Source: Promethearchaeota archaeon (lineage in GTDB: Archaea > Asgardarchaeota > Lokiarchaeia > Sigyniarchaeales > SOKP01). From it: 56,100 bases of DNA. A program made the translations under genes and the position numbers. Numbering within the stretch: the stretch's first letter is position 1; the number at the start of each line of letters is the position of its first letter. A model generated the notes under the pieces. That model saw only the letters and a list, made by a program, of their open reading frames with translations, was not told where the DNA came from and did no database searches. Shown piece by piece: positions 7,401 through 56,046 of this stretch. Where the stretch lies: contig JABXKB010000001.1 in NCBI GenBank assembly GCA_013375485.1, positions 1 to 56,100 of the forward strand, written 5' to 3'.

Positions 7401-7433
7401 ACAAATCTCCTCAATTTAAAATATATTAATTTG

Positions 7434-7444
7434 TCGAATCGGTT
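7434..7444 (-). promoter_or_regulatory. AACCGATTCGAT-class intergenic motif, copy 1
   Basis: minus-sense CTGAAACCGATTCGACAAAT; 11 nt after stop of 7456..8190, 34 nt before ATG 7400. Confidence 0.55.
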
Positions 7445-7455
7445 TCAGTTAAAAG

Positions 7456-8190
7456 CTATCTCCCTAGCATTTTTAAGACCTTTTCTTCATCTCGTTCGTA
7501 AATATGCATGCTATGAGCTGTATGAGTATAATGTCCAACTTCTAAATCAGGATAAGCGTCCTTAAGTTCATCTATCATTTTATACATTAAACTGATAAAC
7601 CATGGAAGGTCATAAGTTAGTCCCAAAGTAAGGTCATTACTTCGCATGACGATGCTTAGATTAAGTTTATTATCACGAATCAAGAAGTTACCGCCAAGCG
7701 TACAAACAAAATCTTTATTGCCCATATAGTGATGTTCTGGCAGACTAAACCGTAAAAGTGCTTGACGTGTATCTTTGTCTGCTCTTAAAGATTCAACACA
7801 CCATTCCCATGGCGTACGTGACACTGCTTCGTAAGCGTCATTGCCCAAACTCTTCTTTTGCCAAATCAAATGACCATAGGCCGAGTTTACTGTTCCATCG
7901 GAATTAGCTATCTTATTCCAAAACTTAGAAGCCTTAGCAAACTCTTTGACATCGTTAGTGCACGAATTATATAGTTCAACCTCTTTTTTAGTATATTTTT
8001 CTATTATCTTATTGCGCTCTGCATCGCGTGTTATGATTGGGTCGGGTTTAGGATTTGTTACTCGAAATGTATAATCAGTAATCTCGCGCACAGCTTGACC
8101 GCGTGGTGATGCTTTGTATTCATAATTAAAATAAACATCTTCTAACGAACCTAGATACGCTTCGTGTAAAGTATCATAAACCTTCATCAC
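7456..8190 (-). CDS. thymidylate-synthase-fold deoxypyrimidine hydroxymethylase (T4 gp42-like)
   Basis: DFVCTLGGNFLIRDNKLNLSIVMRSNDLTLGLTYDLPWF and HSMHIYERD match recalled gp42 blocks; catalytic Cys present; Asp at the ThyA Asn177-equivalent position. Confidence 0.7.
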   Translation of the reverse strand: MMKVYDTLHEAYLGSLEDVYFNYEYKASPRGQAVREITDYTFRVTNPKPDPIITRDAERNKIIEKYTKKEVELYNSCTNDVKEFAKASKFWNKIANSDGTVNSAYGHLIWQKKSLGNDAYEAVSRTPWEWCVESLRADKDTRQALLRFSLPEHHYMGNKDFVCTLGGNFLIRDNKLNLSIVMRSNDLTLGLTYDLPWFISLMYKMIDELKDAYPDLEVGHYTHTAHSMHIYERDEEKVLKMLGR

Positions 8191-18240: not shown

Positions 18241-18266
18241 TATATCCTCCTCCTTGTAAATAACAA

Positions 18267-18277
18267 TAGAATCGGTT
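18267..18277 (-). promoter_or_regulatory. AACCGATTCGAT-class intergenic motif, copy 4 (TTCTAT variant)
   Basis: minus-sense CTTAAACCGATTCTATTGTT; immediately after terminator 18279..18322, 27 nt before ATG 18240. Confidence 0.5.
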
Positions 18278-25080: not shown

Positions 25081-25299
25081 CTACATTTCAAAAAGCCAAG
25101 GGCAATATAGCGCCCACTCTTTTTTATCGTTAAATATTAAAAATTGAACTTCATATTCATCATCGTCATGGTGCGCCGGTACTGCCAATACATCATATAC
25201 CTTTCCCACAGTTATTCCTTCCACTAACTGTTTTTCTTTACGCCTATTAAAGTTTCCTTTTGTTGCCATTATATAGTTTTTAACACATGTAACCTTCAT
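25081..25299 (-). CDS. hypothetical protein
   Basis: 72-aa ORF following MORN array A. Confidence 0.5.
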   Translation of the reverse strand: MKVTCVKNYIMATKGNFNRRKEKQLVEGITVGKVYDVLAVPAHHDDDEYEVQFLIFNDKKEWALYCPWLFEM

Positions 25300-25789
25300 C
25301 TAATATCTCCTCTATAGCTAAACTAGCTAAGTAATCTTGCCTTTTAGGATGACTCTCAAATTCTTCTTCAGTTAGGTATTTATCATCAACATACCATCGT
25401 TTACTGCCACCAGAATATTCAACTGCTGGCCCATCTAAGCGATGACGTTTACTCTTAACATACCAACATTTACTGCCATTAGCATACTCAATTGCTGGCC
25501 CGTCTAAGCGATGTAACTTACCTTCAACATACCAATATTTATCACCATTAGCATACTCAATTGCTGGCCCCTTAAGGCGATGACGTTTATCCTCAACATA
25601 CCAACATTTACTACTACTAGCGTACTCAATTGCTGGTCCATCTAAGCGATGTAACTTACCATTAACATACCACGCTTTATAACCATTAGCAAGCTCAATT
25701 GCTGGCCCATCTAAGCGATGTAGTTTCTTATTATAATCACGATAACTTAAAACACTACCGTCTAAGTAATAAAATTTATCTTTCTTCAT
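25280..25789 (-). CDS. MORN-like 23-aa repeat protein, 5 repeats
   Basis: 5 HRL(D/K)GPA cores; N-cap MKKDKFYYLDGS; tail LASLAIEEILDEGYMC. Confidence 0.8.
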   Translation of the reverse strand: MKKDKFYYLDGSVLSYRDYNKKLHRLDGPAIELANGYKAWYVNGKLHRLDGPAIEYASSSKCWYVEDKRHRLKGPAIEYANGDKYWYVEGKLHRLDGPAIEYANGSKCWYVKSKRHRLDGPAVEYSGGSKRWYVDDKYLTEEEFESHPKRQDYLASLAIEEILDEGYMC

Positions 25790-26348
25790 CCAATATCTCC
25801 TCTATGGCTAAACTGGCTAAATAATCTTGCCTTCTAGGATGACTCTCAAATTCTTCTTCAGTTAGGTATTTATCATCAACCCACCATTCTTTATGGCCAT
25901 TAGCGTATTCAACTGCTGGCCCATCTAAGCGATGTAACTTGCCTTTAATATACCAACTTTTATTGCCATTAGCATACTCAATTGCTGGCCCATCTAAGCG
26001 ATGATGTTTACCCTCAACATACCAATATTTATTACCACTAGCATACTCAACTGCTGGCCCATCTAAGCGATGTAACTCACCTTCAAAAAACCATTCTTTA
26101 TCGCCATTAGCCCACTCAATTGCTGGCCCATCTAAGCGATGTAACTTACCTTCAACACACCAACATTTATGACCATTAGCATACTCAATTGCTGGCCCAT
26201 CTAAGCGATGAATCTTATCTTCAATATACCAACATTTATGACCATTGGCATACTCAACAGCTGGCCCATCAAGGCGATGTAGTTTCTTCGTATCATCACA
26301 ATAATCTAAAATACTACCATCTAAGTAATAAAATTTATCTCTTTTCAC
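25776..26348 (-). CDS. MORN-like 23-aa repeat protein, 6 repeats
   Basis: 6 HRLDGPA cores; GTG start at 26348 inside upstream tail codons; tail LASLAIEEILDEER. Confidence 0.8.
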   Translation of the reverse strand: MKRDKFYYLDGSILDYCDDTKKLHRLDGPAVEYANGHKCWYIEDKIHRLDGPAIEYANGHKCWCVEGKLHRLDGPAIEWANGDKEWFFEGELHRLDGPAVEYASGNKYWYVEGKHHRLDGPAIEYANGNKSWYIKGKLHRLDGPAVEYANGHKEWWVDDKYLTEEEFESHPRRQDYLASLAIEEILDEER

Positions 26349-26700
26349 TTAGTATCTCCTCTATCGCCAAACTAGCTAAGTAGTCTTGCCTTTTAGGATG
26401 CGCTTCAAACTCTTCGTAAGTTAATTCTTCACCACCAACATACCACTCTTTATCACCATCAGCCCACTCAACAGCTGGCCCATCTAAGCGATGACGTTTA
26501 TCTTCAACATACCAACATTTATGACCATTGGCATACTCACAAGCTGGCCCATCAAGGCGATGTAACTTATCTTCAATCCACCACTCTTTACTGCCACTAG
26601 AATACTCAATTGCTGGCCCATCTAAGCGATGTAGTTTCTTATCCCAATCATAATAATCTAAAACACCACCGTCTGAGTAATAATATTTATTTTCTTTCAT
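26335..26700 (-). CDS. MORN-like 23-aa repeat protein, 3 repeats
   Basis: 3 HRLDGPA cores; tail LASLAIEEILSEKR. Confidence 0.8.
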   Translation of the reverse strand: MKENKYYYSDGGVLDYYDWDKKLHRLDGPAIEYSSGSKEWWIEDKLHRLDGPACEYANGHKCWYVEDKRHRLDGPAVEWADGDKEWYVGGEELTYEEFEAHPKRQDYLASLAIEEILSEKR

Positions 26701-26713
26701 TTAATGCGCTCCA

Positions 26714-26905
26714 TTAACTCGATAAAATTTCTGTTTCTATCGCTCTATTTATTAAATGTACTTTATACGCCTTATAGACCTCAATTGGAACCATACAATG
26801 TTTTCCTTCAACATTTACTCCTTCATATAAATGATCATATCCAAGCTCAATTAGCTTATTTAAGGACTTTAGACTGATTTTCTTAACAAAAACAACACGT
26901 TTCAT
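26714..26905 (-). CDS. hypothetical protein
   Basis: 63-aa ORF upstream of array A. Confidence 0.5.
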   Translation of the reverse strand: MKRVVFVKKISLKSLNKLIELGYDHLYEGVNVEGKHCMVPIEVYKAYKVHLINRAIETEILSS

Positions 26906-29005: not shown

Positions 29006-29497
29006 CTACTCTATAATATTAGCTAATTCTTCTGGAAGAACACTTATATCTACTGCGTTTTTAGAAACTTTCGTTTTAGATGCTTTTATACCCTTTAATT
29101 CTTGTTGACGAGCTGTAATAGCTTCTTTTACTTCATCATACTCATCAGTGCCTTCAGTATAATTAGACAATAGACGATTTAAATTAAGCAATGTAGTATC
29201 GCGTTTTGCGCCAGTTTTAGTTGGTGTATATTTTGTCCCACCATTCAATTCCTTTGCTTTTCTTAAATAATTGGCAACCATACCACTTACATACCTATCA
29301 ACTTCTTTTGTATCGGTGGTTGGTTTACCATATGCAACATTACCCTGCAAGATGCCCTTTAAAACTACGTTACGGACTTCTTTTAATTGATCGATGGTTA
29401 AAACCTCTTTTACTTTAGTGGAATTAGGTGTAAAAGAATCTCCCAATACATTTTTTACAGCATTAACAACTGCCTGCCTTTGATTAATAACACTCAT
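29006..29497 (-). CDS. hypothetical protein, paralogue of 55618..56046
   Basis: ATG 29497 after GGAAGGAG; shared YVSGMVANYLRKAKELNGG vs YVSGLVSNWYRKDKRFNGN; C-term VLPEELANIIE. Confidence 0.65.
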   Translation of the reverse strand: MSVINQRQAVVNAVKNVLGDSFTPNSTKVKEVLTIDQLKEVRNVVLKGILQGNVAYGKPTTDTKEVDRYVSGMVANYLRKAKELNGGTKYTPTKTGAKRDTTLLNLNRLLSNYTEGTDEYDEVKEAITARQQELKGIKASKTKVSKNAVDISVLPEELANIIE

Positions 29498-29570
29498 AAA
29501 ATCTCCTTCCAAAAACGTTTTACATTATATTCTATATTTTTATTATACAAAAATTAAAAAACACAACGTG

Positions 29571-39427: not shown

Positions 39428-39658
39428 TTATTGTAATATTTTGTCAATCTCTTTTTCTATTTCTTTATTTAATATAATTTTAGCTATTTTATAGGCTTGT
39501 TTGAGGGTGCAAGTTGTCACTCTATGTACCTTGTTACTTTTTAATGGACACTTGCTACTACACCCAAAATGGACACAAATAGCTCGAGCTGCAGTAGAAG
39601 ACACCCTTCCTTTATTTTCAATAACATCTTGCAATAAAGTATATTCATCGTTAGTCAT
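39428..39658 (-). CDS. Cys-containing small protein, paralogue of 22549..22788
   Basis: trimmed to ATG 39658 (MTNDEYTLL) after AAGAGG. Confidence 0.5.
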   Translation of the reverse strand: MTNDEYTLLQDVIENKGRVSSTAARAICVHFGCSSKCPLKSNKVHRVTTCTLKQAYKIAKIILNKEIEKEIDKILQ

Positions 39659-40061
39659 ATAATACCTCTTTTTCAAATGCCTCATTGCGATAAGCTTCAA
39701 ACTTTTTATAAGTTAAACACTCACCTTCAATATACCAACTTTTACTACCATCAGCAAACTCAACCGCTGGTCCATCTAAGCGATGTAACTTACCATTAAC
39801 ATACCATCGTTTACTGCCACTAGTATACTCAATTGCTGGTCCATCTAAGCGATGTAACTTACCATTAACATACCATCGTTTACTGCCACTAGAATACTCA
39901 ACCGCTGGTCCATCTAAGCGATGTAACTTACCTTCAACATACCATTCCCTATGACCATTGGCATACTCAACAGCTGGCCCATCTAAGCGATGTAGTTCCT
40001 TATCCCAATCATCATAATCTAAAATACTACCACCTAAGTAATAAAATTTATCTCTTTTCAC
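39651..40061 (-). CDS. MORN-like repeat protein, 4 repeats, array-closing tail
   Basis: 4 HRLDGPA cores; tail LTYKKFEAYRNEAFEKEVLYD. Confidence 0.8.
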   Translation of the reverse strand: MKRDKFYYLGGSILDYDDWDKELHRLDGPAVEYANGHREWYVEGKLHRLDGPAVEYSSGSKRWYVNGKLHRLDGPAIEYTSGSKRWYVNGKLHRLDGPAVEFADGSKSWYIEGECLTYKKFEAYRNEAFEKEVLYD

Positions 40062-40479
40062 CTAGTATCTCCTCTATAGCTAAACTAGCTAAGTAATCTT
40101 GCCTTTTAGGATGCGCTTCAAATTGTTCTTCAGTTAAACGTTTACCCTCAACATACCATTCTTTATCGCCATTAGCGTACTCAATCGCTGGCCCATCAAG
40201 GCGATGACATTTACCCTCAACATACCAACTTTTACTACCCTCAACATACTCAATTGCTGGTCCATCTAAGCGATGACGTTTACCCTTAACATACCATCGT
40301 TTACTGCCACTAGAATACTCAATTGCTGGTCCATCTAAGCGATGACGTTTATCTTCAATCCACCACTCTTTACTGCCATTAGCGTACTCAATTGCTGGCC
40401 CATCTAAGCGATGTAAGATTTTATCCCAACCATAATAATCTAAAATACTACCATCTAAGTAATAAAATTTATCTTTCAT
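40048..40479 (-). CDS. MORN-like repeat protein, 4 repeats
   Basis: 4 HRLDGPA cores; tail LASLAIEEILGEKR. Confidence 0.8.
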   Translation of the reverse strand: MKDKFYYLDGSILDYYGWDKILHRLDGPAIEYANGSKEWWIEDKRHRLDGPAIEYSSGSKRWYVKGKRHRLDGPAIEYVEGSKSWYVEGKCHRLDGPAIEYANGDKEWYVEGKRLTEEQFEAHPKRQDYLASLAIEEILGEKR

Positions 40480-40897
40480 TCAATATTTCCTCTATGGCTA
40501 AACTAGCTAAGTAGTCTTGCCTTTTAGGATGCGCTTCGAATTGTTCTTCAGTTAATAATTTACCATCAACCCACCATTCTTTATGGCCACTAGCATACTC
40601 AACTGCTAGCTCATCTAAGCGATGTAACTTACCTTCAAAAAACCACTTTTTACTACCATCAGCATACTCACAAGCTGGCCCATCTAAGCGATGTAACTTA
40701 CCTTCAAAAAACCACTTTTTACTACCATCAGCATACTCAATTGCCGGCCCATCTAAGCGATGACGTTTATCTTCAACATACCACTCTTTATCACCATTGG
40801 CAAACTCAGCTGCTGGTCCATCTAAGCGATGTAGTTTCTTATCCCAATCATAATAATCTAAAATACTGCCATCTAAGTAATAAAATTTATCTTTCAT
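40469..40897 (-). CDS. MORN-like repeat protein, 4 repeats
   Basis: 4 HRLD cores (last HRLDELA); tail LASLAIEEILNER. Confidence 0.8.
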   Translation of the reverse strand: MKDKFYYLDGSILDYYDWDKKLHRLDGPAAEFANGDKEWYVEDKRHRLDGPAIEYADGSKKWFFEGKLHRLDGPACEYADGSKKWFFEGKLHRLDELAVEYASGHKEWWVDGKLLTEEQFEAHPKRQDYLASLAIEEILNER

Positions 40898-41456
40898 TCA
40901 ATATTTCCTCTATAGCTAAACTAGCTAAGTAATCTTGTCTTTTAGGATGTGTTTCAAATTGTTCTTCAGTTAAATGTTTACCATCAACCCACCAATATTT
41001 ATCACCATTGGCATACTCAACAGCTGGCCCATCTAAGCTATGCAACTTACCTTCAAAAACCCATTCTTTACTGCCATTAGCATACTCAACAGCTGGTCCA
41101 TCTAAGCGATGCAACTTACCTTCAAAAAACCATTCTTTATCGCCATTAGCGTACTCAATTGCTGGTCCATCTAAGCGATGAAACTTACCTTCAAAAAACC
41201 ATTCTTTATCGCCATCAGCCCACTCAATTGCTGGCCCGTCTAAGCGATGTAACTTACCTTCAACATACCAATATTTATCACCATTAGCATACTCAATTGC
41301 TGGCCCATCTAAGCGATGACGTTTATCCTCAATCCACCACTCTTTATTACCATCAGCATACTCAATTGCTGGTCCATCAAGGCGATGTAGTTTCTTCGTA
41401 TCATCATAATAATCTAAAATACTACCGTCTAAGTAATAAAATTTATTTTTCTTCAC
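40887..41456 (-). CDS. MORN-like repeat protein, 6 repeats
   Basis: 6 cores (last LHSLDGPA); tail LASLAIEEILNER. Confidence 0.8.
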   Translation of the reverse strand: MKKNKFYYLDGSILDYYDDTKKLHRLDGPAIEYADGNKEWWIEDKRHRLDGPAIEYANGDKYWYVEGKLHRLDGPAIEWADGDKEWFFEGKFHRLDGPAIEYANGDKEWFFEGKLHRLDGPAVEYANGSKEWVFEGKLHSLDGPAVEYANGDKYWWVDGKHLTEEQFETHPKRQDYLASLAIEEILNER

Positions 41457-41805
41457 TTAGTATCTCCTCTATAGCTAAACTAGCTAAGTAATCTTGTCTT
41501 TTAGGATGTGTTTCAAACTCTTCGTAAGTTAATTCTTCACCATCAACCCACCATTCTTTATGGCCACTAGCAAACTCAATTGCTGGTCCATCTAAGCGAT
41601 GTAACTTACCATTAACATACCATCGTTTACTGCCATTAGCATACTCAATTGCTGGCCCGTCTAAGCGATGTAACTTACCATTAACATACCAATATTTATC
41701 ACCATTAGCATACTCAATTGCCGGCCCATCAAGGCGATGTAGTTTCTTCGTATCATCATAATAATCTAAAGTACTACCATTTAAGTAATAAAACTTATCT
41801 TTCAT
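41443..41805 (-). CDS. MORN-like repeat protein, 3 repeats
   Basis: 3 HRLDGPA cores; tail LASLAIEEILSEEK. Confidence 0.8.
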   Translation of the reverse strand: MKDKFYYLNGSTLDYYDDTKKLHRLDGPAIEYANGDKYWYVNGKLHRLDGPAIEYANGSKRWYVNGKLHRLDGPAIEFASGHKEWWVDGEELTYEEFETHPKRQDYLASLAIEEILSEEK

Positions 41806-42154
41806 TCAATATTTCCTCTATAGCCAAATTAGCTAAGTAATCTTTTCTTTTGGGGTGAGTTTCGAATTCTTCTTCAGTTAGGTATTTATCATCAATCCAC
41901 CATTCTTTATGGCTACTAGCGCACTCAATTGCTGGTCCATCTAAGCGATGACGTTTACCCTTAACATACCATCGTTTACTACCACTAGAATACTCAACAG
42001 CTGGCCCATCTAAGCGATGACGTTTATCTTCAATCCACCATTCTTTACTGCCATTAGCATACTCAATTGCTGGCCCGTCTAAGCGATGTAGTTTCTTATC
42101 CCAATCATAATAATCTGAAACACTACCATTTAAGTAATAAAATTTATCTTTCAT
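41795..42154 (-). CDS. MORN-like repeat protein, 3 repeats
   Basis: 3 HRLDGPA cores; tail LANLAIEEILNER. Confidence 0.8.
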   Translation of the reverse strand: MKDKFYYLNGSVSDYYDWDKKLHRLDGPAIEYANGSKEWWIEDKRHRLDGPAVEYSSGSKRWYVKGKRHRLDGPAIECASSHKEWWIDDKYLTEEEFETHPKRKDYLANLAIEEILNER

Positions 42155-42506
42155 TCAATATTTCCTCTATAGCTAAACTAGCTAAGTAATCTTGCCTTTT
42201 AGGATGCGCTTCAAATTCTTCTTCAGTTAGGTATTTATCATCAACATACCATTCTTTATCGCCATTAGCGTACTCAACTGCTGGTCCATCTAAGCGATGT
42301 AACTTACCATCAATACACCACTTTTTACTACCATTAGCATATTCAACTGCTGGTCCATCTAAGCGATGACGTTTACCCTTAACATACCACCATTTACTGC
42401 CATCAACCCGCTCAATTGCTGGCCCATCTAAGCGATGTAGTTTCTTATCCCAATCATAATAACCTAAAACACTACCATCTAAGTAATAATATTTATTGCC
42501 CTTCAT
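42144..42506 (-). CDS. MORN-like repeat protein, 3 repeats (first gene of array B)
   Basis: 3 HRLDGPA cores; ATG 42506 31 nt downstream of motif copy 8. Confidence 0.8.
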   Translation of the reverse strand: MKGNKYYYLDGSVLGYYDWDKKLHRLDGPAIERVDGSKWWYVKGKRHRLDGPAVEYANGSKKWCIDGKLHRLDGPAVEYANGDKEWYVDDKYLTEEEFEAHPKRQDYLASLAIEEILNER

Positions 42507-42535
42507 TTAATGGTCCCCTTTTTATGTGTTTAATA

Positions 42536-42573
42536 ATCGAATCGGTTGGGGTGAATTGTGGCGTAGCGGTGTC
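42536..42573 (-). promoter_or_regulatory. 38-nt box GACACCGCTACGCCACAATTCACCCCAACCGATTCGAT (contains motif copy 8)
   Basis: identical 38-mer at 44209..44246; core motif at 42537-42547. Confidence 0.6.
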
Positions 42574-42575
42574 AA

Positions 42576-42720
42576 TTAAAAGGACAGGCGCTGCGAAGCC
42601 ACCTGTCCCGTATCGCAGTCGGAGATTACTTGTTTACCGTCAGGCACAAGCTGAACTCTCCGTAAGTTCTAAGGGGTGGCGCCCATTACAAGCGCCTTGG
42701 GGGTATGTAGGTATTTAATA
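42576..42720 (-). ncRNA. candidate structured non-coding RNA / leader ending in an intrinsic terminator
   Basis: GC-rich, no credible ORF; stems GGCGC/GCGCC (42678-82/42692-96), CGGAGA/TCTCCG (42620-25/42657-62) enclosing CTTGT/ACAAG; terminator GGACAGG/CCTGTCC (42582-88/42602-08) + U-run on minus strand. Confidence 0.45.
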
Positions 42721-42885
42721 CTATAATTCTGCAAAATCATCCCAGTTAGGATTATTATAATAATCAACTACTTGTTTGCGGGTTATCACGTTAGTATTGA
42801 TTAAGTGTTGTATCTCTGATGCGTCTAATTCATCAAAATTAATATCTTCATATATCTCAGTAAATATTGCTTTCATCTTACCCAT
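42721..42885 (-). CDS. small acidic protein (54 aa)
   Basis: SD GGAGGA before ATG 42885; below ORF-track cutoff. Confidence 0.4.
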   Translation of the reverse strand: MGKMKAIFTEIYEDINFDELDASEIQHLINTNVITRKQVVDYYNNPNWDDFAEL

Positions 42886-42893
42886 ATTTCCTC

Positions 42894-43298
42894 CTATTCA
42901 AAAAAAGATAAATCGGGAAAATTACAGTTATAACAACCATTTTCTAATCCACAATCACACTTTACTATTACATTTTTCTCAAATACCTCACTACGATAAT
43001 TTTCAAACTCTTCGTAAGTTAATTCTTCACCATCAATCCACCATTCTTTATGGCTACTAGCGCACTCAATTGCTGGTCCATCTAAACGATGCAACTTACC
43101 TTCAACATACCATTCCCTATAACCATTAGCGTACTCAATTGCTGGCCCATCTAAGCGATGACGTTTACCTTTAACATACCACGCTTTACAACTGTCAGCA
43201 TACTCAATTGCTGGTTCATCTAAGCGATGTAACTTCTTATTGCGATTATAATAATCTAAAACACTACCATCTAAGTAATAATATTTATTTTTCTTCAT
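42894..43298 (-). CDS. MORN-like repeat protein, 3 repeats, with Cys-rich C-terminal extension
   Basis: 3 cores; tail LTYEEFENYRSEVFEKNVIVKCDCGLENGCYNCNF. Confidence 0.8.
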   Translation of the reverse strand: MKKNKYYYLDGSVLDYYNRNKKLHRLDEPAIEYADSCKAWYVKGKRHRLDGPAIEYANGYREWYVEGKLHRLDGPAIECASSHKEWWIDGEELTYEEFENYRSEVFEKNVIVKCDCGLENGCYNCNFPDLSFFE

Positions 43299-43560: not shown

Positions 43561-43586
43561 CTTACCTCCCATTATATATTTAACAG

Positions 43587-43597
43587 TCGAATTGGTT
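43587..43597 (-). promoter_or_regulatory. AACCGATTCGAT-class motif, copy 9 (CCAATTCGAC variant)
   Basis: minus-sense CTCAAACCAATTCGACTGTT; 27 nt before ATG 43560. Confidence 0.5.
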
Positions 43598-43609
43598 TGA
43601 GTTATAAGC

Positions 43610-43632
43610 GGGGCGAATTACTCGCCCCTTTT
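43610..43632. terminator. GC-rich hairpin (orientation ambiguous)
   Basis: GGGGCGA-ATTAC-TCGCCCC; the T-run is on the plus strand although the neighbouring genes are minus. Confidence 0.4.
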
Positions 43633-43677
43633 CGAGACAGGTTGAGGGTTTGCCTTTATCCACCCACAATTTTACGC

Positions 43678-43893
43678 TTAGCGATCGGCTAACTCATATT
43701 TAGATGGAGAACATACTACTACTCCATGTGGGCTCCATCCCAAGTATATTCCATAAAACTTTTCCAACTGAAACAATATTCGTCCATTTTCTTTACGGTT
43801 TTTAACTCTATAAAGCTCAGGGTGTCTATTTACTAAATATTCAAATGCTTTAAGTTTTCGCCTATTGCGCGCAATTGTTTCTTCTCTAGTCAT
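43678..43893 (-). CDS. hypothetical protein
   Basis: 71-aa ORF, ATGA overlap upstream. Confidence 0.55.
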   Translation of the reverse strand: MTREETIARNRRKLKAFEYLVNRHPELYRVKNRKENGRILFQLEKFYGIYLGWSPHGVVVCSPSKYELADR

Positions 43894-44174
43894 AATACCT
43901 CCTTTTCTAGAATATCACTTACATACTTTTCATATGCTTTATCCCATGCGTCTTTACATTCATCTGTATAGTACTCAAGCGGTACGAATCTCCATGTTTC
44001 ATCGCCGGGATACATTTCTTGTAGCTCTTCAATTTTCTCATCTGTTAAATCTTCAACGATAGTATTGGATGGTAAGTCTTCAACCACATACCAATCATTA
44101 TCCAAGTCTTTAACCATTATAGGCGCAACATGTTCATCGAGATCAATTTCTAATACTAAATACTTTCTTTTCAT
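43890..44174 (-). CDS. acidic hypothetical protein
   Basis: 94 aa; SD AAGGGGG; tail KYVSDILEKEVL. Confidence 0.6.
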   Translation of the reverse strand: MKRKYLVLEIDLDEHVAPIMVKDLDNDWYVVEDLPSNTIVEDLTDEKIEELQEMYPGDETWRFVPLEYYTDECKDAWDKAYEKYVSDILEKEVL

Positions 44175-44208: not shown

Positions 44209-44246
44209 ATCGAATCGGTTGGGGTGAATTGTGGCGTAGCGGTGTC
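44209..44246 (-). promoter_or_regulatory. second copy of the 38-nt box (contains motif copy 10)
   Basis: identical to 42536..42573; core at 44210-44220, 36 nt before ATG 44174. Confidence 0.6.
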
Positions 44247-49344: not shown

Positions 49345-49679
49345 AGCACAGTCCTCTCAAATAATTCATGTTGTATATCTTTTATCATATTAGGGTCAAG
49401 TTCCATTTCTTTGCGGCGACATTTAATTATAACTATGTTTCCCACAAACCTCCATGCATATCGATTACGGTGTTTATCTAATGAGATCCATTGTTGACAA
49501 GTAGACCACGTCCATTCGTTTTTGTTAGTTTTATTAGTTGCTTCGTTGAATAATCTAAGTAGAAATTCAAGTTCAAATGTAGTAAAAGACTTTAAATCTT
49601 TTAAGCTATAACGATATGTGTTGGCTATATATTGCTTTGCTATTTTTTTTAACAATCTTATTTTCTTAATTCTGTCCAT
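49341..49679 (-). CDS. hypothetical protein (FELEFL family, paralogue of 55291..55548)
   Basis: TTFELEFLLRLFNEATNKTNKNEWT.STCQQW vs TKFELEFLTKMYENGGDSNKTNFT.KACQHY. Confidence 0.55.
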   Translation of the reverse strand: MDRIKKIRLLKKIAKQYIANTYRYSLKDLKSFTTFELEFLLRLFNEATNKTNKNEWTWSTCQQWISLDKHRNRYAWRFVGNIVIIKCRRKEMELDPNMIKDIQHELFERTVL

Positions 49680-50082
49680 CTAATACATTCCTCTCAAATG
49701 CTTCATTGCGATAAGCTTCAAACTCTTTATAAGTTAAACACTTACCTTCAATATACCAACTTTTACTACCATCAGCAAACTCAACCGCTGGTCCATCTAA
49801 GCGATGACGTTTACCCTTAACATACCAACATTTACAACTGTCAGCATACTCAATTGCTGGTCCATCTAAGCGATGTAACTTACCATTAACATACCATCGT
49901 TTACTGCCACTAGAATACTCAACAGCTGGCCCATCTAAGCGATGTAACTTATCTTCAATATACCAACATTTATGACCATTGGCATACTCAATTGCTGGCC
50001 CCTTAAGGCGATGTAGCTTCTTATTGCAATTATAATAATCTAAAATACTACCGTCTGAGTAATAAAATTTATTTTTCTTCAC
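49666..50082 (-). CDS. MORN-like repeat protein, 4 repeats, array-closing tail
   Basis: 4 cores; tail LTYKEFEAYRNEAFERNVLDGQN. Confidence 0.8.
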   Translation of the reverse strand: MKKNKFYYSDGSILDYYNCNKKLHRLKGPAIEYANGHKCWYIEDKLHRLDGPAVEYSSGSKRWYVNGKLHRLDGPAIEYADSCKCWYVKGKRHRLDGPAVEFADGSKSWYIEGKCLTYKEFEAYRNEAFERNVLDGQN

Positions 50083-50503
50083 TTAGTATCTCCTCTATAG
50101 CTAAACTAGCTAAGTAGTCTAACCGCTTAGGGTGATTCTCAAATTCTTCTTCAGTTAAATGTTTACCATTAATATACCATCGTTTACTGCCACTAACATA
50201 CTCACAAGCTGGCCCATCTAAGCGATGTAACTTATCGTCAATAAACCAATATTTACTGCCATTAGCAAACTCAACCGCTGGCCCATCAAGGCGATGCAAC
50301 TTACCTTCAACATACCATTCCCTATGACCATTAGCATACTCAATTGCTGGCCCATCTAAGCGATGACGTTTACCCTCAACATACCACCATTTATAACCAT
50401 TGGCATACTCAACAGCTGGCCCATCAAGGCGATGTAGTTTCTTCGTATCATCATAATAATTTAAAATACTACCGTCTAAGTAATAAAATTTATTTTTCTT
50501 CAC
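50069..50503 (-). CDS. MORN-like repeat protein, 4 repeats
   Basis: 4 cores; tail LASLAIEEILSEEK. Confidence 0.8.
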   Translation of the reverse strand: MKKNKFYYLDGSILNYYDDTKKLHRLDGPAVEYANGYKWWYVEGKRHRLDGPAIEYANGHREWYVEGKLHRLDGPAVEFANGSKYWFIDDKLHRLDGPACEYVSGSKRWYINGKHLTEEEFENHPKRLDYLASLAIEEILSEEK

Positions 50504-50852
50504 TTAGTATCTCCTCTATAGCTAAACTAGCTAAGTAATCTTGCCTTTTAGGATGCACTTCAAATTCTTCTTCAGTTAAATGTTTACCATTAATACACCA
50601 ATATTTATCACCATCGGCGCACTCAATTGCCGGCCCATCTAAGCGATGTAACTTATCTTCAACATACCACTCTTTATCACCATCAGCCCACTCAACAGCT
50701 GGCCCATCAAGGCGATGACGTTTACCCTCAACATACCAATATTTATCACCATCAGCAAACTCAACCGCTGGCCCATCTAAACGATGTAGTTCCTTATTGC
50801 GATTATAATAATCTAAAATACTACCGTCTGAGTAATAATATTTATTTCCCAT
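50490..50852 (-). CDS. MORN-like repeat protein, 3 repeats
   Basis: 3 cores; tail LASLAIEEILSEEK. Confidence 0.8.
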   Translation of the reverse strand: MGNKYYYSDGSILDYYNRNKELHRLDGPAVEFADGDKYWYVEGKRHRLDGPAVEWADGDKEWYVEDKLHRLDGPAIECADGDKYWCINGKHLTEEEFEVHPKRQDYLASLAIEEILSEEK

Positions 50853-51339
50853 CTAATAATTCCTCTATGGCTAAACTAGCCAAGTAATCTTTTCTTTTGG
50901 GGTGTGTTTCAAATTCTTTTTCAGTTAAATATTTACCATTAACATACCGCGCTTTATAACCATTAGCGTACTCAACTGCTGGCCCATCAAGGCGATGACG
51001 TTTACCCTCAACATACCAACATTTATCGCCATTAGCGCACTCAATCGCTGGCCCATCAAGACGATGACGTTTACCCTCAACATACCATTCCCTATGACCA
51101 TTGGCATACTCAACAGCTGGCCCATCTAAGCGATGACGTTTATCTTCAATAAACCAATATTTATTACCATTAGCGCACTCAATCGCTGGCCCATCAAGAC
51201 GATGACGTTTACCCTCAACATACCACGCTTTATAACCATTAGCGTACTCAATTGCTGGCCCCTTAAGGCGATGTAGCTTCTTATTGCAATCATAATAATC
51301 TAAAATACTACCATCTAAGTAATAAATTTTATCTTCCAT
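50842..51339 (-). CDS. MORN-like repeat protein, 5 repeats
   Basis: 5 cores; tail LASLAIEELLDGK. Confidence 0.8.
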   Translation of the reverse strand: MEDKIYYLDGSILDYYDCNKKLHRLKGPAIEYANGYKAWYVEGKRHRLDGPAIECANGNKYWFIEDKRHRLDGPAVEYANGHREWYVEGKRHRLDGPAIECANGDKCWYVEGKRHRLDGPAVEYANGYKARYVNGKYLTEKEFETHPKRKDYLASLAIEELLDGK

Positions 51340-51628
51340 CTAATACATTCCTCTCAAACAACTCAGTCTTAAAGCAATTTATGCCACCTATCTTAAAGCG
51401 CCTACCTATTGGGTTATTATCTTCTTTAATCATCAGCCAATCTATTTCAAGCGGATATCTTATGGTATAAACACCTTCGCGGTAACTATCTATCCTTCCA
51501 TCTACCACATTACAGATAGCCGCTAATATACGAGTAGGAATCTGCTTCAAAATACGCTCAGATATATAGTTACACGAGATTTCGTCTATATCATTTATAT
51601 TCGTTAATAAATCCCACGTTTTCTTCAT
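51329..51628 (-). CDS. hypothetical protein interrupting array C
   Basis: no MORN repeats; tail FKTELFERNVLDGR. Confidence 0.55.
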   Translation of the reverse strand: MKKTWDLLTNINDIDEISCNYISERILKQIPTRILAAICNVVDGRIDSYREGVYTIRYPLEIDWLMIKEDNNPIGRRFKIGGINCFKTELFERNVLDGR

Positions 51629-52029
51629 AGCACATTCCTTTCAAACAATTCATTACGATAAGCTTCAAACCTTTCGTAAGTTAAACGCTTACCATTAATA
51701 TACCAGCGCTTATTACCATTGGCCCATTCAATTGCTGGCCCATCTAAACGATGTAACTTACCCTCAACACACCATTCTTTATCGCCACTAGCATGCTCAA
51801 CTGCTGGCCCATCTAAGCGATGTAACTTACCTTTAACATACCATCGTTTACTGCCATTGGCATACTCAACAGCTGGCCCGTCTAAGCGATGTAGTTTATC
51901 TTCAATCCACCACTCTTTATCACCATCAACGTACTCAGCTGCTGGCCCATCTAAACGATGTAACTTCTTATTGCGATTATAATAATCTAAAACACTACCG
52001 TCTGAGTAATAATATTTATCTTCCTTCAT
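51625..52029 (-). CDS. MORN-like repeat protein, 4 repeats, array-closing tail
   Basis: 4 cores; tail LTYERFEAYRNELFERNVL. Confidence 0.8.
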   Translation of the reverse strand: MKEDKYYYSDGSVLDYYNRNKKLHRLDGPAAEYVDGDKEWWIEDKLHRLDGPAVEYANGSKRWYVKGKLHRLDGPAVEHASGDKEWCVEGKLHRLDGPAIEWANGNKRWYINGKRLTYERFEAYRNELFERNVL

Positions 52030-52519
52030 CTAATAATTCCTCTATGGCTAAACTAGCTAAGTAGTCTTGCCTTTTAGGATGCGCTTCAAATTGTTTTTCA
52101 GTTAGGTATTTACCTTCAACATACCATTCCCTATGACCATTAGCATACTCAATTGCTGGCCCGTCTAAGCGATGCAACTTACCTTCAACATACCATTCCC
52201 TATCACCATTAGCATACTCAATTGCCGGCCCATCTAAGCGATGACGTTTATCTTCAGTCCGCCACTCTTTACAACCATTAGCCCACTCAATTGCTGGCCC
52301 ATCAAGACGATGTAACTTACCTTCAACATACCATTCCCTATGACCATTAGCATACTCAATTGCTGGCCCGTCTAAGCGATGACGTTTATCTTCAACATAC
52401 CACGCTTTACAACTGTCAGCATACTCAACTGCTGGCCCGTCTAAGCGATGTAGCTTCTTATTACAATCACAATAATCTAAAACACTACCATCTAAGTAAT
52501 AATAATATTTATTTTCCAT
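52016..52519 (-). CDS. MORN-like repeat protein, 5 repeats
   Basis: 5 cores; tail LASLAIEELLDEGR. Confidence 0.8.
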   Translation of the reverse strand: MENKYYYYLDGSVLDYCDCNKKLHRLDGPAVEYADSCKAWYVEDKRHRLDGPAIEYANGHREWYVEGKLHRLDGPAIEWANGCKEWRTEDKRHRLDGPAIEYANGDREWYVEGKLHRLDGPAIEYANGHREWYVEGKYLTEKQFEAHPKRQDYLASLAIEELLDEGR

Positions 52520-52802
52520 CTAATAATTCCTCTATAGCTAAACTAGCTAAATAATCATAACGCTTAGGATGTGTTTCAAATTCTTCTTCAGTTAAATGTT
52601 TACCATTAACATACCACGCCTTATAACCATTAGCGTACTCAACTGCTGGCCCATCTAAGCGATGACGTTTATCTTCAACATGCCACTCTTTATTACCATC
52701 AGCATACTCAACAGCTGGCCCATCTAAGCGATGTAACTTCTTGTTCCAATCACAATAATTTAAAATACTGCCGTCTAAGTAATAAAATTTATTTTTCTTC
52801 AC
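52509..52802 (-). CDS. MORN-like repeat protein, 2 repeats
   Basis: 2 cores; tail LASLAIEELLDGK. Confidence 0.8.
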   Translation of the reverse strand: MKKNKFYYLDGSILNYCDWNKKLHRLDGPAVEYADGNKEWHVEDKRHRLDGPAVEYANGYKAWYVNGKHLTEEEFETHPKRYDYLASLAIEELLDGK

Positions 52803-53226
52803 TTAGTATCTCCTCTATCGCCAAACTAGCTAAGTAGTCTTTTCTTTTGGGGTGGGCTTCAAATTCTTCTTCAGTTAAACGCTTACCATTAATAATCCAC
52901 CACCTTTTACCACCATCAGCAAACTCAACCGCTGGCCCATCAAGGCGATGACGTTTATCCTCAACATACCATTCCCTATGACCATTGGCAAACTCAACAG
53001 CTGGCCCGTCTAAGCGATGTAACTTACCATTAACATACCACTCTTTACAACCATTAGCCCACTCAATTGCTGGCCCATCAAGACGATGTAACTTACCTTC
53101 AACATGCCAATATTTACTGCCATTGGCATACTCAGCTGCTGGCCCATCTAAGCGATGTAGTTCCTTATCCCAATCATAATAATCTAAAATACTACCGTCT
53201 AAGTAATAATATTTATTTTCTTTCAT
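52789..53226 (-). CDS. MORN-like repeat protein, 4 repeats
   Basis: 4 cores; tail LASLAIEEILSEEK. Confidence 0.8.
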   Translation of the reverse strand: MKENKYYYLDGSILDYYDWDKELHRLDGPAAEYANGSKYWHVEGKLHRLDGPAIEWANGCKEWYVNGKLHRLDGPAVEFANGHREWYVEDKRHRLDGPAVEFADGGKRWWIINGKRLTEEEFEAHPKRKDYLASLAIEEILSEEK

Positions 53227-53509
53227 TTAATATCTCCTCTATAGCTAAACTAGCTAAATAATCATAACGCTTAGGATGTGTTTCAAATTCTTCTTCAGTT
53301 AGGTATTTACCATTAACCCACCATCGTTTACTACCACTAGAAAACTCAACCGCTGGTCCATCTAAGCGATGACGTTTACCCTTAACATACCACCATTTAC
53401 TGCCACTAGCATACTCAATTGCTGGCCCATCAAGGCGATGTAGTTTCTTCGTATCATCATAATAATTTAAAATACTACCGTCTAAGTAATAAAATTTATC
53501 TCTTTTCAC
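53213..53509 (-). CDS. MORN-like repeat protein, 2 repeats
   Basis: 2 cores; tail LASLAIEEILNERK. Confidence 0.8.
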   Translation of the reverse strand: MKRDKFYYLDGSILNYYDDTKKLHRLDGPAIEYASGSKWWYVKGKRHRLDGPAVEFSSGSKRWWVNGKYLTEEEFETHPKRYDYLASLAIEEILNERK

Positions 53510-53999
53510 TTAGTATCTCCTCTATAGCTAAACTAGCTAAGTAATCTTGCCTTTTAGGGTGCGCTTCAAATTGTTTTTCAGTTAGGTATTTACCTTCAAC
53601 ATACCATTCCCTATGACCATTAGCATACTCAATTGCTGGCCCGTCTAAGCGATGACGTTTATCTTCAACATACCACGCTTTACCACCATCAGCAAACTCA
53701 ACCGCTGGCCCATCAAGGCGATGCAACTTACCTTCAACATACCATTCCCTATGACCATTAGCATACTCAATTGCCGGCCCATCTAAGCGATGACATTTAC
53801 CCTTAACATACCATGCGTTATTACCATTAGCATACTCAATTGCTGGCCCATCTAAGCGATGAATCTTATCTTCAATATACCAATATTTACTGCCATTGGC
53901 ATACTCAACAGCTGGCCCATCAAGGCGATGTAACTTCTTGTTCCAATCTTTATAATCTAAAATACTACCATCTAAGTAATAAAATTTATTTTTCTTCAC
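53496..53999 (-). CDS. MORN-like repeat protein, 5 repeats
   Basis: 5 cores; tail LASLAIEEILSEKR. Confidence 0.8.
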   Translation of the reverse strand: MKKNKFYYLDGSILDYKDWNKKLHRLDGPAVEYANGSKYWYIEDKIHRLDGPAIEYANGNNAWYVKGKCHRLDGPAIEYANGHREWYVEGKLHRLDGPAVEFADGGKAWYVEDKRHRLDGPAIEYANGHREWYVEGKYLTEKQFEAHPKRQDYLASLAIEEILSEKR

Positions 54000-54210
54000 T
54001 TAGTATCTCCTCTATAGCTAAACTAGCTAAGTAATCATAACGCTTAGGATGCGCTTCAAATTCTTCTTCAGTTAAATGTTTACCATTAATATACCATCGT
54101 TTACTGCCACTAACATACTCAATTGCTGGCCCATCTAAGCGATGTAGTTTCTTATCCCAATCATAATAACCTAAAACACTACCATCTAAGTAACAATATT
54201 TATCTCCCAC
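53986..54210 (-). CDS. MORN-like repeat protein, 1 repeat (minimal member, first gene of array C)
   Basis: N-cap + single HRLDGPA core + tail LASLAIEEILSEEK in 74 aa. Confidence 0.75.
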   Translation of the reverse strand: MGDKYCYLDGSVLGYYDWDKKLHRLDGPAIEYVSGSKRWYINGKHLTEEEFEAHPKRYDYLASLAIEEILSEEK

Positions 54211-54529
54211 CTAATACATTCCTCTCAAATAACTCAGCCTTAATTTTTTCTTCACAACACCTTTTTCTTAAAAAACCCCTTTTAACAAAACTATAATCTA
54301 AATATAAACCATACTCTACATCTGTACCACGAACCCTAACCCTTAAATGTGCTGTCTTTCCATTCTTATGTATATAGTGCCAGAATCTATGTTCATTATG
54401 AGTTTGATTCATAACCTCTAACAATCCCTCTAAGGTACTAGAAGGAAGGGTAGACGGGTCAAACTGGTCATACTGACGGCTATATTGGCACAGTACTTCA
54501 ACTACACTTTCTAACACTAATGAATCCAC
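54200..54529 (-). CDS. hypothetical protein (LESVV family)
   Basis: GTG start after GGAGGCAAGTA; tail KIKAELFERNVLGGR. Confidence 0.6.
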   Translation of the reverse strand: MDSLVLESVVEVLCQYSRQYDQFDPSTLPSSTLEGLLEVMNQTHNEHRFWHYIHKNGKTAHLRVRVRGTDVEYGLYLDYSFVKRGFLRKRCCEEKIKAELFERNVLGGR

Positions 54530-54842
54530 TACTTGCCTCCACCTAACACATTCCTCTCAAATAACTCAGCCTCAATATTTTCCTTACAATCACTTTCTCC
54601 TAAAAAACCACTACCACTAAAAATATCGTATAATATATACCTGTATCATTATCAACCTCAATCTCGAACCATATTTCTTTAGTAGCACTTTTCTTAAACC
54701 ACCCCCAATTACAGCCTTTATTTATAACTTCTAACAATCCCTCTAGAGTATTAGAAGGAAGGGTGGATAGGTCGCACTGACTCCAATCATAGCTGTACCT
54801 GTGCACCACCTTAACTACACTTTCTAATACTGATATTTCCAC
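54529..54842 (-). pseudogene. frameshifted paralogue of 54200..54529 (or programmed frameshift)
   Basis: N-part (GTG 54842, ISVLESVVKVV...STLPSNTLEGLLEV) stops at 54600; homologous C-part SGSGFLGESDCKENIEAELFERNVLGGGK is in another frame ending TAG 54529-54531; switch must lie in GTATATATTATAC near 54630-54642. Confidence 0.55.
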
Positions 54843-54879
54843 TACTCGCCTCCAACTGATACTATACCATGATAATATT

Positions 54880-54890
54880 TCGTATCGGTT
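54880..54890 (-). promoter_or_regulatory. AACCGATTCGAT-class motif, copy 12 (CCGATACGA variant)
   Basis: minus-sense CTATCAACCGATACGAAATA; 38 nt before GTG 54842. Confidence 0.45.
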
Positions 54891-54891
54891 G

Positions 54892-55290
54892 ATAGATATT
54901 TTATAAGTATTTGATATTATAGAGGCTAATATAGATCAAGGCGCAGTAAAGGGCGGGGGTGGGGCGGCGAGCAATTTGCGCTTACAGCTTAACTTTATTT
55001 TAGCTTAGTATATAGAGCCAGTAATGGCGCCAGTATGGACCCTGCGAGGATACGTGATCTTCTCCCCCTAGGGGCTAAGGACATGCGGTCGTGATTAGCT
55101 AAGAACGGTCGTAATCTTGTTTCTCTAGGCCCTTTTTACACGTTTATTGGTTTTTTTGGGAAGGATTTTGTGGGGACCTGATGGAGCTAGGGTAGTAAAA
55201 TAAAGCGGCCAATGAGCTCAGGGGGCGTAAAGTGCGCCGGCCAATGGGTGGCGTAGCAGTGTCAGTTGTTGTTAGGTCACTGGGGCTCGC
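54892..55290. other. ~400-nt GC-rich non-coding island with tandem imperfect duplications
   Basis: no ORF of 60 aa or more on either strand; pairs GCCAGTAATGG/GCCAGTATGG (55017-55038), GCTAAGGACATGCGGTCGTGAT/GCTAAGAACGGTCGTAAT (55074-55115), CGGCCAATGAG.../CGGCCAATGGG... (55207-55263); box GTGGCGTAGCAGTGTC at 55248-55263. Confidence 0.6.
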
Positions 55291-55617: not shown

Positions 55618-56046
55618 TTACTCGCTGTCTTCAGCACCAAGTCCTAGACTTGCTCTAAGTTCAGCTGGTATTTTATCAAGATCAACTTGAATGTCTTTTG
55701 CTTTAGCAGCTTTGAGTTCTGTGCTGCGTTTCTCAATTGCTGCATCGATCTCCTTAGTTTCTTTGCCAGCAGCTTCGAACTGCTTCTTGAGTAGTCTTAG
55801 GTTCTTCATCTGTGAATCACCTTGACCAGCTCTTGAACCAGGATTAGCGGCAACATAAGTCACATTGCCATTGAAGCGCTTATCTTTGCGATACCAATTG
55901 CTCACTAGTCCGCTCACATAAGCCTTGAGTTTAGAGTCATCTGCTAGTTTCTCTTTGTTGGCTGGAGTATCTTTAAGGTCGATCTCACCAGCTTTGAAAC
56001 TCTCACAAATGATTGAAGTGATTGACTGTCTCATGTCTTCGGTCAT
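55618..56046 (-). CDS. hypothetical protein, GC-richer paralogue of 29006..29497; may extend beyond window
   Basis: frame remains open upstream of ATG 56046 to the window end; C-term VDLDKIPAELRASLGL. Confidence 0.6.
   Translation of the reverse strand: MTEDMRQSITSIICESFKAGEIDLKDTPANKEKLADDSKLKAYVSGLVSNWYRKDKRFNGNVTYVAANPGSRAGQGDSQMKNLRLLKKQFEAAGKETKEIDAAIEKRSTELKAAKAKDIQVDLDKIPAELRASLGLGAEDSE

Follow-up and report, generated by a model that had tools for sequence, protein, structure and literature searches.

What does a GC-rich, non-coding stretch do between two genes of an AT-rich phage genome? The question is raised by the minus strand of the 56.1-kb contig analysed here as a whole and hereafter called the window, which has 33.7% GC and carries phage genes nearly all on that strand. 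Between a TAG stop codon (42721-42723) and a 38-nt box (42536-42573) that precedes an array of small MORN-repeat genes, the GC content reaches 0.59 over 80 nt as against 0.337 overall, making this stretch the strongest GC island of the window, and minus-strand stops occur in all three frames within the first ~85 nt of the stretch between the TAG and the box. An initial annotation had described it as non-coding, as containing three helical elements in the minus sense, the last of them a terminator, and as carrying a CTGCGA/TCGCAG pair interleaved with the terminator arms. We found all of this to be accurate, the pair lying at 42618-42613 and 42596-42591. Our reading, which we hold tentatively, is that 42574-42663 of the minus strand is a conserved cis-acting terminator or attenuator RNA module. 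It is based on the structure of the element, on its conservation in a second phage and on its position relative to signals that recur throughout a clade of related phages. The module would then represent a new and very small family, within an uncharacterised clade of phages, of leader or 3'-end RNAs that contain a terminator.

The elements of the stretch are listed here, with helix coordinates and strands given for the gene-sense (minus) strand of the window; L051 is the locus of the second phage.

42574-42663, minus strand: the entire conserved module, from P1 through P2, the linker and P3 to the U-tract, homologous to L051:1397-1493
42620-42662, minus strand: the two-tier helix P1/P2, with the internal loop GUUCA / AA
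42662-42657 with 42625-42620, minus strand: P1, the outer helix CGGAGA/UCUCCG
42651-42643 with 42638-42628, minus strand: P2, the inner helix GCUUGU(GCC)/(GGU)ACAAGU
42610-42619, minus strand: the single-stranded linker ACUGCGAUAC, which contains A = CUGCGA (42618-42613)
42609-42581, with the U-tract to 42578, minus strand: P3, a terminator-type hairpin GGGACAGGUG../..CGCCUGUCCU
42678-42696 (42696-42692 with 42682-42678), minus strand: hairpin 1 of the fold, GGCGC(UUGUAAUGG)GCGCC, extendable by two G.U pairs and without a U-tract

P3, which a simple terminator scan overlooked owing to its bulge, has 12 pairs and a folding energy of -17.7 kcal/mol, with UUUUAAUU (U4) directly after the stem. 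Its apex holds A' = UCGCAG (42596-42591), which is complementary to A and interleaved with the terminator arms. As a predicted intrinsic terminator it looks the part: the GC-rich stem-loop is there, and so is the U-tract in the window, with a weaker one in L051. The 153-nt stretch folds with a minimum free energy (MFE) of -46.9 kcal/mol (z = -1.82), an equally good fold being obtained in 9 of 200 shuffles, whereas the plus strand gives z = -0.33. Because of this asymmetry and of the G.U pairs we take the gene-sense strand to be the RNA strand. A single sequence is weak evidence for a fold, and it is on account of the compensatory changes in the homologue L051 that we consider the structure to go beyond chance. 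With these changes, comparative sequence analysis confirms the stretch as a strand-specific structured RNA.

L051 is a locus of IMGVR_UViG_3300005613_000005, a 176-kb uncultured myovirus whose two fetched loci have 46-48% GC. By protein comparison the same phage is also the closest relative found, with 63% identity in a 168-aa family described below. When the stretch minus the box was compared with the clade loci by short-word blastn, one match was significant, L051:1441-1482 (88% over 42 nt, E = 4e-6), and a covariance model (CM) built from the window sequence alone and its MFE structure recovered the full-length L051:1397-1493 at 55.8 bits (E ~1e-10). In the CM alignment of the two sequences 98% of cells are paired and five pairs have changed on both sides, as against 0-1 in slid controls; one of the five is in P1 (G-C to A-U), three are in P2 and one is in P3 (A-U to G-C). 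The other substitutions in paired columns amount to one change of G.U to G-C and the loss of the outermost P3 pair, and the remaining differences are all in unpaired columns. On this alignment, P1, P2 and P3 are kept by compensatory changes in the L051 phage, whose copy has a fold z of -2.97 and a P3 stem of 10 bp. The terminator half, P3, is the best-conserved part of the module. The linker retains 9 of its 10 bases, and the P1/P2 internal loop has become GUCUG/GA, keeping 3 of 7 bases together with its 5-nt/2-nt shape. A and A' (12 bases) are unchanged, which has P ~0.2 by chance at 12% divergence, and more generally statements about sequence conservation are weak because two members are known. 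Hairpin 1, which the initial annotation had counted with the other elements, has no counterpart in L051 and by this comparison is outside the conserved module.

No third member came from IMG/VR scans with conserved blocks, where the other matches were due to chance or to coding sequence (L094, which falls within coding sequence; L166-L173; and L180, on the strand opposite a coding region). The module was likewise absent from a scan of genome-collection contigs, and a DNA search of the INPHARED phages with the region gave no match. Exact 22-33-mers of the module were not found in IMG/VR or in metagenomes, and the pattern GCTACGCCAC..CCGATTCGAT returned from metagenomes mostly chance matches in GC-rich bacterial contigs. 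CM searches R1 and R2, which covered ~1.2 Mb from clade loci and ~0.5 Mb from other fetched loci, as well as the window (here with filters off), recovered no third member and gave ordinary terminators only (L051:7908, L054:11563, L170, and 55560 and 43603 in the window). The Rfam/Infernal scan that had been suggested for this locus also matched no class: Rfam 15 at gathering scores gave no match in the whole window, and at E <= 10 only chance matches appeared over 42400-42900, the sole one for hairpin 1 being to Histone3, with 16.3 bits where the gathering score is 34. ARAGORN found 0 tRNA or tmRNA genes in the window.

The genes that flank the module are unrelated in the window and in L051. 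The order in L051 is a 60-aa open reading frame (ORF), its own terminator with U5, AACCGAAACGAT, ~20 nt, the module, ACC-UUUU, GGAGGG and the ATG of a 47-aa ORF. AACCGAAACGAT is the proximal motif of the L051 phage, a promoter-like signal discussed below, and recurs at L051:8000 just before a gene. The module therefore occupies a 126-nt leader between a promoter-like motif and a ribosome-binding site (RBS), with ~5 nt from the U-run to the RBS, and is an insertion in an otherwise short leader. Because no promoter-like motif is found after the module and only ~5 nt separate the U-run from the RBS, the 47-aa ORF would be expressible only by read-through of P3; termination in L051 would have to be partial or conditional for that ORF to be expressed. 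In the window, the module follows a stop codon and no promoter motif precedes it. A promoter-like cassette stands between it and the downstream gene; without the 38-nt box the ATG of the MORN gene would be 32 nt away. Both copies are in regions of small accessory genes, and common to the two regions is a 67-72-aa protein with a hydrophobic N-terminal stretch.

The immediate surroundings of the module in the window, and the signals that recur elsewhere in it, are as follows.

42721-42885, minus strand: a 54-aa ORF directly upstream of the stretch, its TAG stop at 42721-42723 abutting the GC-rich sequence
42536-42573, minus strand: the 38-nt box, copy 1, between the GC-rich stretch and the first MORN gene
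42558-42573, minus strand: the 16-mer GACACCGCTACGCCAC (consensus CTGACACYGCTACGCC), first part of the box
42536-42546, minus strand: the proximal motif ACCGATTCGAT, last 11 nt of the box, 37 nt upstream of the first MORN gene's ATG
42144-42506, minus strand: the MORN-repeat gene that follows the box, first in array B
44209-44246, minus strand: the 38-nt box, copy 2, exact, upstream of a 94-aa ORF (43890-44174) and without a structured module before it
7433, 11078, 13463, 18266, 19504, 20480, 37580, 42536, 44209 and 48259, minus strand: copies of ACCGATTCGAT, 11 nt each

The two copies of the 38-nt box have unrelated flanks on both sides, which suggests a recently copied or mobile regulatory cassette, and the copy beside the module may be a recent insertion. 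The box consists of two independent elements, the 16-mer and the proximal motif, as is evident from their spacing, which varies from ~4 to >60 nt. The 16-mer (GACACYGCTACGCCAC) occurs at three places on the minus strand of the window (42558-42573, 44231-44246 and 55248-55263), and in the form CTGACACTGCTACGCC it is present in 69 IMG/VR loci (L001-L014 and L033-L093) from ~45 contigs, many of them 100-177 kb long. It is conserved across clade genomes of very different GC content, and its 128 unique copies in ~1.2 Mb of clade DNA are intergenic and never on both strands of one locus. The 50 nt upstream of these 128 copies fold with a mean of -15.9 kcal/mol, compared with -8.6 for random 50-mers, and 53% of them, compared with 8% of random ones, are at or below -15 kcal/mol. 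P3 thus stands where hairpins sit throughout the clade, immediately before the 16-mer cassette. The proximal motif ACCGATTCGAT has 10 copies in the window with one mismatch allowed (7 are exact) against 0.48 expected; all 10 are on the minus strand, each of them 21-55 nt ahead of a start codon that has an RBS. This motif probably serves the phage as its chief promoter signal close to genes. CTTAACTGAA often precedes it, and GC-richer relatives have CCCGAnnCTATA in the same place.

The usual layout in the clade is accordingly a stop codon, a GC hairpin (often with a U-run), the 16-mer, a variable spacer, a proximal motif (CCCGAnnCTATA or ACCGA(A/T)TCGAT), 20-40 nt, an RBS and an ATG. L075 has the hairpin, U-run, 16-mer, proximal motif, RBS and ATG in the order of the module region, and the terminator-then-motif layout also occurs at other junctions of the window (18266-18276 and 43586-43628). 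The second of these falls in a GC-rich intergenic region (43573-43677, minus strand) in which a terminator-like hairpin, GGGGCGAGUAAUUCGCCCC (43628-43610), stands before a 95-aa ORF and is followed by a variant proximal motif, AACCAATTCGAC (43597-43586), the same layout without the 16-mer. Written as CCGAnnC(G/T)ATA, the proximal motif is similar to positions -11 to -1 of the T7 and SP6 promoters. A search of the window and of the large ORFs of the fetched loci for an RNA polymerase or sigma gene that might account for the motifs turned up none. The 38-nt box and its motifs were not found in cultured phage records (INPHARED), and the motif string had no relevant match in the searchable literature.

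Parts of P3 occur elsewhere. A terminator at L007:796-825 has a 5' arm identical to that of P3 over 14 of 14 nt and precedes a 16-mer without the rest of the module, and at L170:9260-9295, on a contig of 68% GC, the terminator apex GGUGGCUUCGCAGCGCC is identical to that of P3. Judged from these matches, whose significance is marginal, terminator pieces may be exchanged between phages or convergent.

Several points weigh against the proposal that this is a terminator or attenuator module. The fold of the single sequence is unexceptional (z = -1.82). The five compensatory changes, which the initial annotation had looked to homologues to provide, were found in one homologue, and a family of two members only is too small for a statistical covariation test; the alignment was also fitted to the model structure, though the P1 and P3 changes are still in unambiguously aligned sequence. 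In L051 the U-tract is displaced 3 nt from the stem by ACC, which counts against efficient termination there. The only alternative pairing is 8-11 kcal/mol weaker than the terminator fold, and there is no sign of conditional termination. Intrinsic termination is itself an assumption, and the 16-mer and ACCGATTCGAT are candidate promoter-type signals on account of their position only.

The interleaved pair had led the initial annotation to propose either an H-type pseudoknot or a mutually exclusive antiterminator/terminator switch attached to an aptamer-like domain. The pseudoknot we reject, because the loop that crosses the 6-bp A-A' stem would have 0 nt with the 10-bp P3 stem and 3 nt with a 7-bp stem; this geometry is argued from established pseudoknot rules, not computed. 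Nor did a balanced switch emerge from the energies: folds in which A-A' was forced lie 7.9-8.4 kcal/mol above the MFE in the two members, the 8-bp extension that borrows two bases of P1 lies 10.9-12.6 kcal/mol above it, and the ensemble probability of the central A-A' pair is 0.0000 in both. With the A-A' fold so much weaker than the terminator fold, a switch would need a stabilising factor. We regard as very improbable a ligand- or factor-responsive switch in which P1/P2 would be the sensor and the linker CUGCGA would block the terminator by pairing with the UCGCAG of the P3 apex, in a helix that the last two P1 bases could lengthen to 8 bp. Such a switch would explain why A and A' can pair and have stayed identical in the two members, and why neither P1 (G-C to A-U) nor the extended helix (C-G to U.G) is lost through the C-to-U substitution in the 3' arm of P1. 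It would also suit the position of the L051 module in a 5' leader, and a perfect complement of at least 6 nt to the terminator loop, which arises within the 45 nt upstream in 13.5% of dinucleotide shuffles, arises within the last 14 nt upstream of the terminator in only 3.1%. To set against this, besides the stability of the terminator fold and the sterically implausible pseudoknot, there are the promoter-like cassette between module and gene in the window, the chance level at which A and A' would be unchanged, the lack of a match to any Rfam class and the poorly kept internal-loop bases. As read from two sequences, the internal loop is too variable to resemble a ligand pocket, and the aptamer-like domain finds no support. 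The broader form of the idea is a new phage leader-RNA class in which P1/P2 would sense a small molecule or factor, A-A' would serve as a factor-stabilised antiterminator and read-through into small accessory genes, namely the MORN array in the window and the 47-aa ORF in L051, would be conditional; this we consider quite improbable.

Another possibility is a plain constitutive terminator next to an unrelated hairpin that stabilises the 3' end by shielding it from exonucleases, with the likeness to L051 due to recent cassette exchange and with no regulation. We rate this as somewhat unlikely. Hairpins before the 16-mer are the rule in the clade, the terminator half is the best conserved, the P3 5' arm in L007 stands before a 16-mer by itself, and a GC-rich module in an AT-rich genome, together with the exact duplicate of the box, is consistent with imported cassettes. 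However, the L051 module comes after a promoter-like motif and 5 nt before an RBS, in a place where a separate terminator already ends the upstream gene, and P1/P2 is kept by four compensatory pairs despite divergence, which argues for selection on this hairpin too; an accessory hairpin under selection is the best-supported view of P1/P2. A trans-acting small RNA of ~100-125 nt that ends at the P3/U-tract, made from its own promoter in L051 and processed from the 3' untranslated region (UTR) of the 54-aa ORF in the window, with the linker GACUGCGAUA or the P3 loop as its seed, seems unlikely. The promoter-like motif ~20 nt upstream in L051 and the hairpin and U-run at the end would fit such an RNA, as would the good terminator at the end of the window copy, followed by a new promoter-like cassette, and the linker, which is single-stranded in the MFE fold and conserved at 9 of 10 bases. 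But the window copy has no promoter motif before it, the RBS and ATG of L051 come within 5 nt with no promoter between, an unchanged linker is uninformative with two sequences at 12% divergence, and the gene-sense strands of the window, L051 and L095 (each a part of its genome) contain no stretch of 7-8 nt complementary to the linker. Of the riboswitch- or small-RNA-like character that had been suggested at the outset, then, the terminator and structured-RNA parts are supported, while the riboswitch part is unsupported.

Translation of the module is a further possibility. All three frames are closed before P2, and what remains is the following short ORF.

42576-42647, minus strand: a micro-ORF of 23 codons, GTG..TAA, MPDGKQVISDCDTGQVASQRLSF, with GGAGAG 8 nt upstream, running through P3 to a stop codon within the U-tract

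The same frame is open in L051 over 31 codons, and the two share the peptide ISDCD(T/N)GQV(A/S)SQRL. That it encodes a small protein, or a leader peptide with pyrBI-type coupling whose translation across P3 would keep the terminator from forming, appears highly improbable to us, even with a GTG suitably placed after GGAGAG. The two frames differ by 3 non-synonymous and 2 synonymous changes, every one of them neutral to the RNA structure; the Shine-Dalgarno (SD) sequence and start are buried in P1/P2 and not kept in L051; and no protein sharing three 5-residue words with the L051 ORF was found among 5.8 billion proteins. An open frame of such length in sequence of 52-60% GC has a chance of ~0.3 by our own estimate. 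As in pyrBI-type attenuation, a short ORF with an SD runs through a terminator hairpin in the window, but the initiation signals are not conserved in the homologue and no pausing signals were seen.

The terminator or attenuator module that we favour shares with known intrinsic terminators and attenuators a GC-rich stem-loop with a U-tract after it, which has the same orientation as the genes and is placed where a unit ends (window) or within a leader (L051). It differs from them in that the upstream P1/P2 and the linker are conserved with the terminator, and no leader-peptide logic, T-box, RNA-binding-protein site or aptamer was identified. With riboswitches that use a terminator platform it has in common the succession of structured domain, linker and terminator, a P1-adjacent segment that can pair with the terminator and, in L051, a location in the 5' UTR; unlike them, it matches no Rfam class, its would-be sensor is a plain interrupted hairpin with variable loop bases, its antiterminator is far weaker and the window copy is separated from its gene by a cassette. 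The PeSL cassettes of T4-type phages, reportedly described by Arbiol and co-workers, are short repeated cassettes of a promoter and a stem-loop. Here too, cassettes of promoter-like signal and stem-loop are repeated between small accessory genes in a plastic genome region, and the exact 38-nt duplicate suggests mobility. The motif sequences are different, however, the phage clade is unrelated and the hairpin comes before the signal. Intergenic signals of the T7 group comprise RNase III processing hairpins, terminators and promoters for a single-subunit RNA polymerase. The interrupted two-tier hairpin between genes and next to a promoter-like signal recalls these, but P1 and P2 together have only 15-16 bp, shorter than T7 RNase III sites, and the phages are myoviruses rather than T7-like podoviruses.

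The motif-bearing contigs share with the window the 168-aa protein family (29006-29512 and 55618-56046), and the closest cultured relative of the clade tail sheath is that of Myxococcus phage Mx1, at 31.6% identity; we describe the clade as uncultured myoviruses of about 100-177 kb, distantly Mx1/SPO1-like. The family, of 140-170 aa (YVSGLVSNWxRKDKRLNGN..KNPGSRAGQGD), is encoded on the minus strand in the window and at L051:430-1041, 1829-2335 and 7425-7928. It has no Pfam or PHROG annotation and no match in cultured phages, and it marks the same clade as the 16-mer, in 71 IMG/VR loci with 2-3 copies per genome. The contigs L201/L217 (LNEN01000305.1) and L199/L216 (CAWBYX01...), which carry the 16-mer, are binned in metagenome-assembled genomes of Cytophagales and Verrucomicrobiae, a weak hint at host range; most other genome matches look like chance 17-mers.

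Among the other genes of the window are an HNH endonuclease, an ATPase, an ATP-dependent DNA ligase, ClpP-like proteases, thymidylate synthase, a deoxynucleoside monophosphate kinase, phosphoesterases and three arrays of MORN-repeat genes. The 54-aa ORF upstream of the module is an orphan, with no relative among 5.8 billion proteins or in IMG/VR. The MORN protein has thousands of relatives, and the long contigs that carry them (L030-L032) have only the MORN gene in common. About 25 paralogous small MORN-repeat genes lie on the minus strand, in three tandem arrays and one single copy (25280-26730, 39600-42506, 42894-43298 and 49600-54210). They have a 69-nt repeat period, a common C-terminal tail ..EEFE.HPKRQDYLASLAIEEIL, thousands of metagenome relatives and a faint Pfam match to DUF6745; the copy at 42894-43298 has a Cys-rich tail in place of the common one. 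A decayed MORN gene tail was considered as the origin of the GC-rich stretch and rejected: the matches TAAATACCTA and AACTTACGGAGAGTT are near chance level, and they map to one position of the paralogous tails and are not collinear, which counts against such a relic.

A long GC-rich non-coding region elsewhere in the window (54843-55290) shows no similarity to the module, and the idea that the module is a fragment of it was rejected for that reason. This region of ~450 nt on the minus strand is GC-rich over ~330 nt; the 16-mer stands at its start and AACCGATACGAAAT at its end, ahead of a GTG start codon. Four collinear short matches place it in synteny with L002:2395-2720 (IMGVR_UViG_3300027985_000872), the L002 copy being rich in GTGGGGCTAGCCCCAC-type palindromes. 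Rfam gave no match for the region, which may be a non-coding RNA, a long leader or a site where proteins bind. Next to it, at 54200-54842 (minus strand), are two adjacent paralogous ORFs of 109 and 80 aa that share LESVV.V....STLPS.TLEGLLEV, both with GTG starts after alike leaders, GGAGGC(A/G)AGTAGTGGA.

How, then, might the module work? If it is a terminator or attenuator, transcripts through the 54-aa ORF would fold P1/P2 and then P3, most RNA polymerases would stop at the U-tract (42581-42578) and close the transcription unit, and the RNA 3' end would be left protected by two stacked hairpins. The 38-nt cassette (16-mer and ACCGATTCGAT) would then restart transcription for the MORN gene array. 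In the L051 phage the module would instead act in a leader, with conditional or partial termination before the 47-aa ORF. We infer both termination at P3 and promoter function of the cassette, and it is plausible that the former is modulated by P1/P2, A-A' pairing, a factor or translation of the micro-ORF.

With the module, an RNA element of conserved structure that belongs to no described class has come to light in an uncultured clade of myoviruses of roughly 150-177 kb, and its analysis has exposed the transcription punctuation of that clade: a hairpin, then the co-oriented 16-mer CTGACACYGCTACGCC, then the proximal motif CCGAnnC(G/T)AT(A). If it is only a terminator, it would be a clean marker of transcription-unit boundaries for annotating clade genomes. 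If it is a conditional terminator, it would offer an entry point to the timing of accessory gene array expression in such phages.

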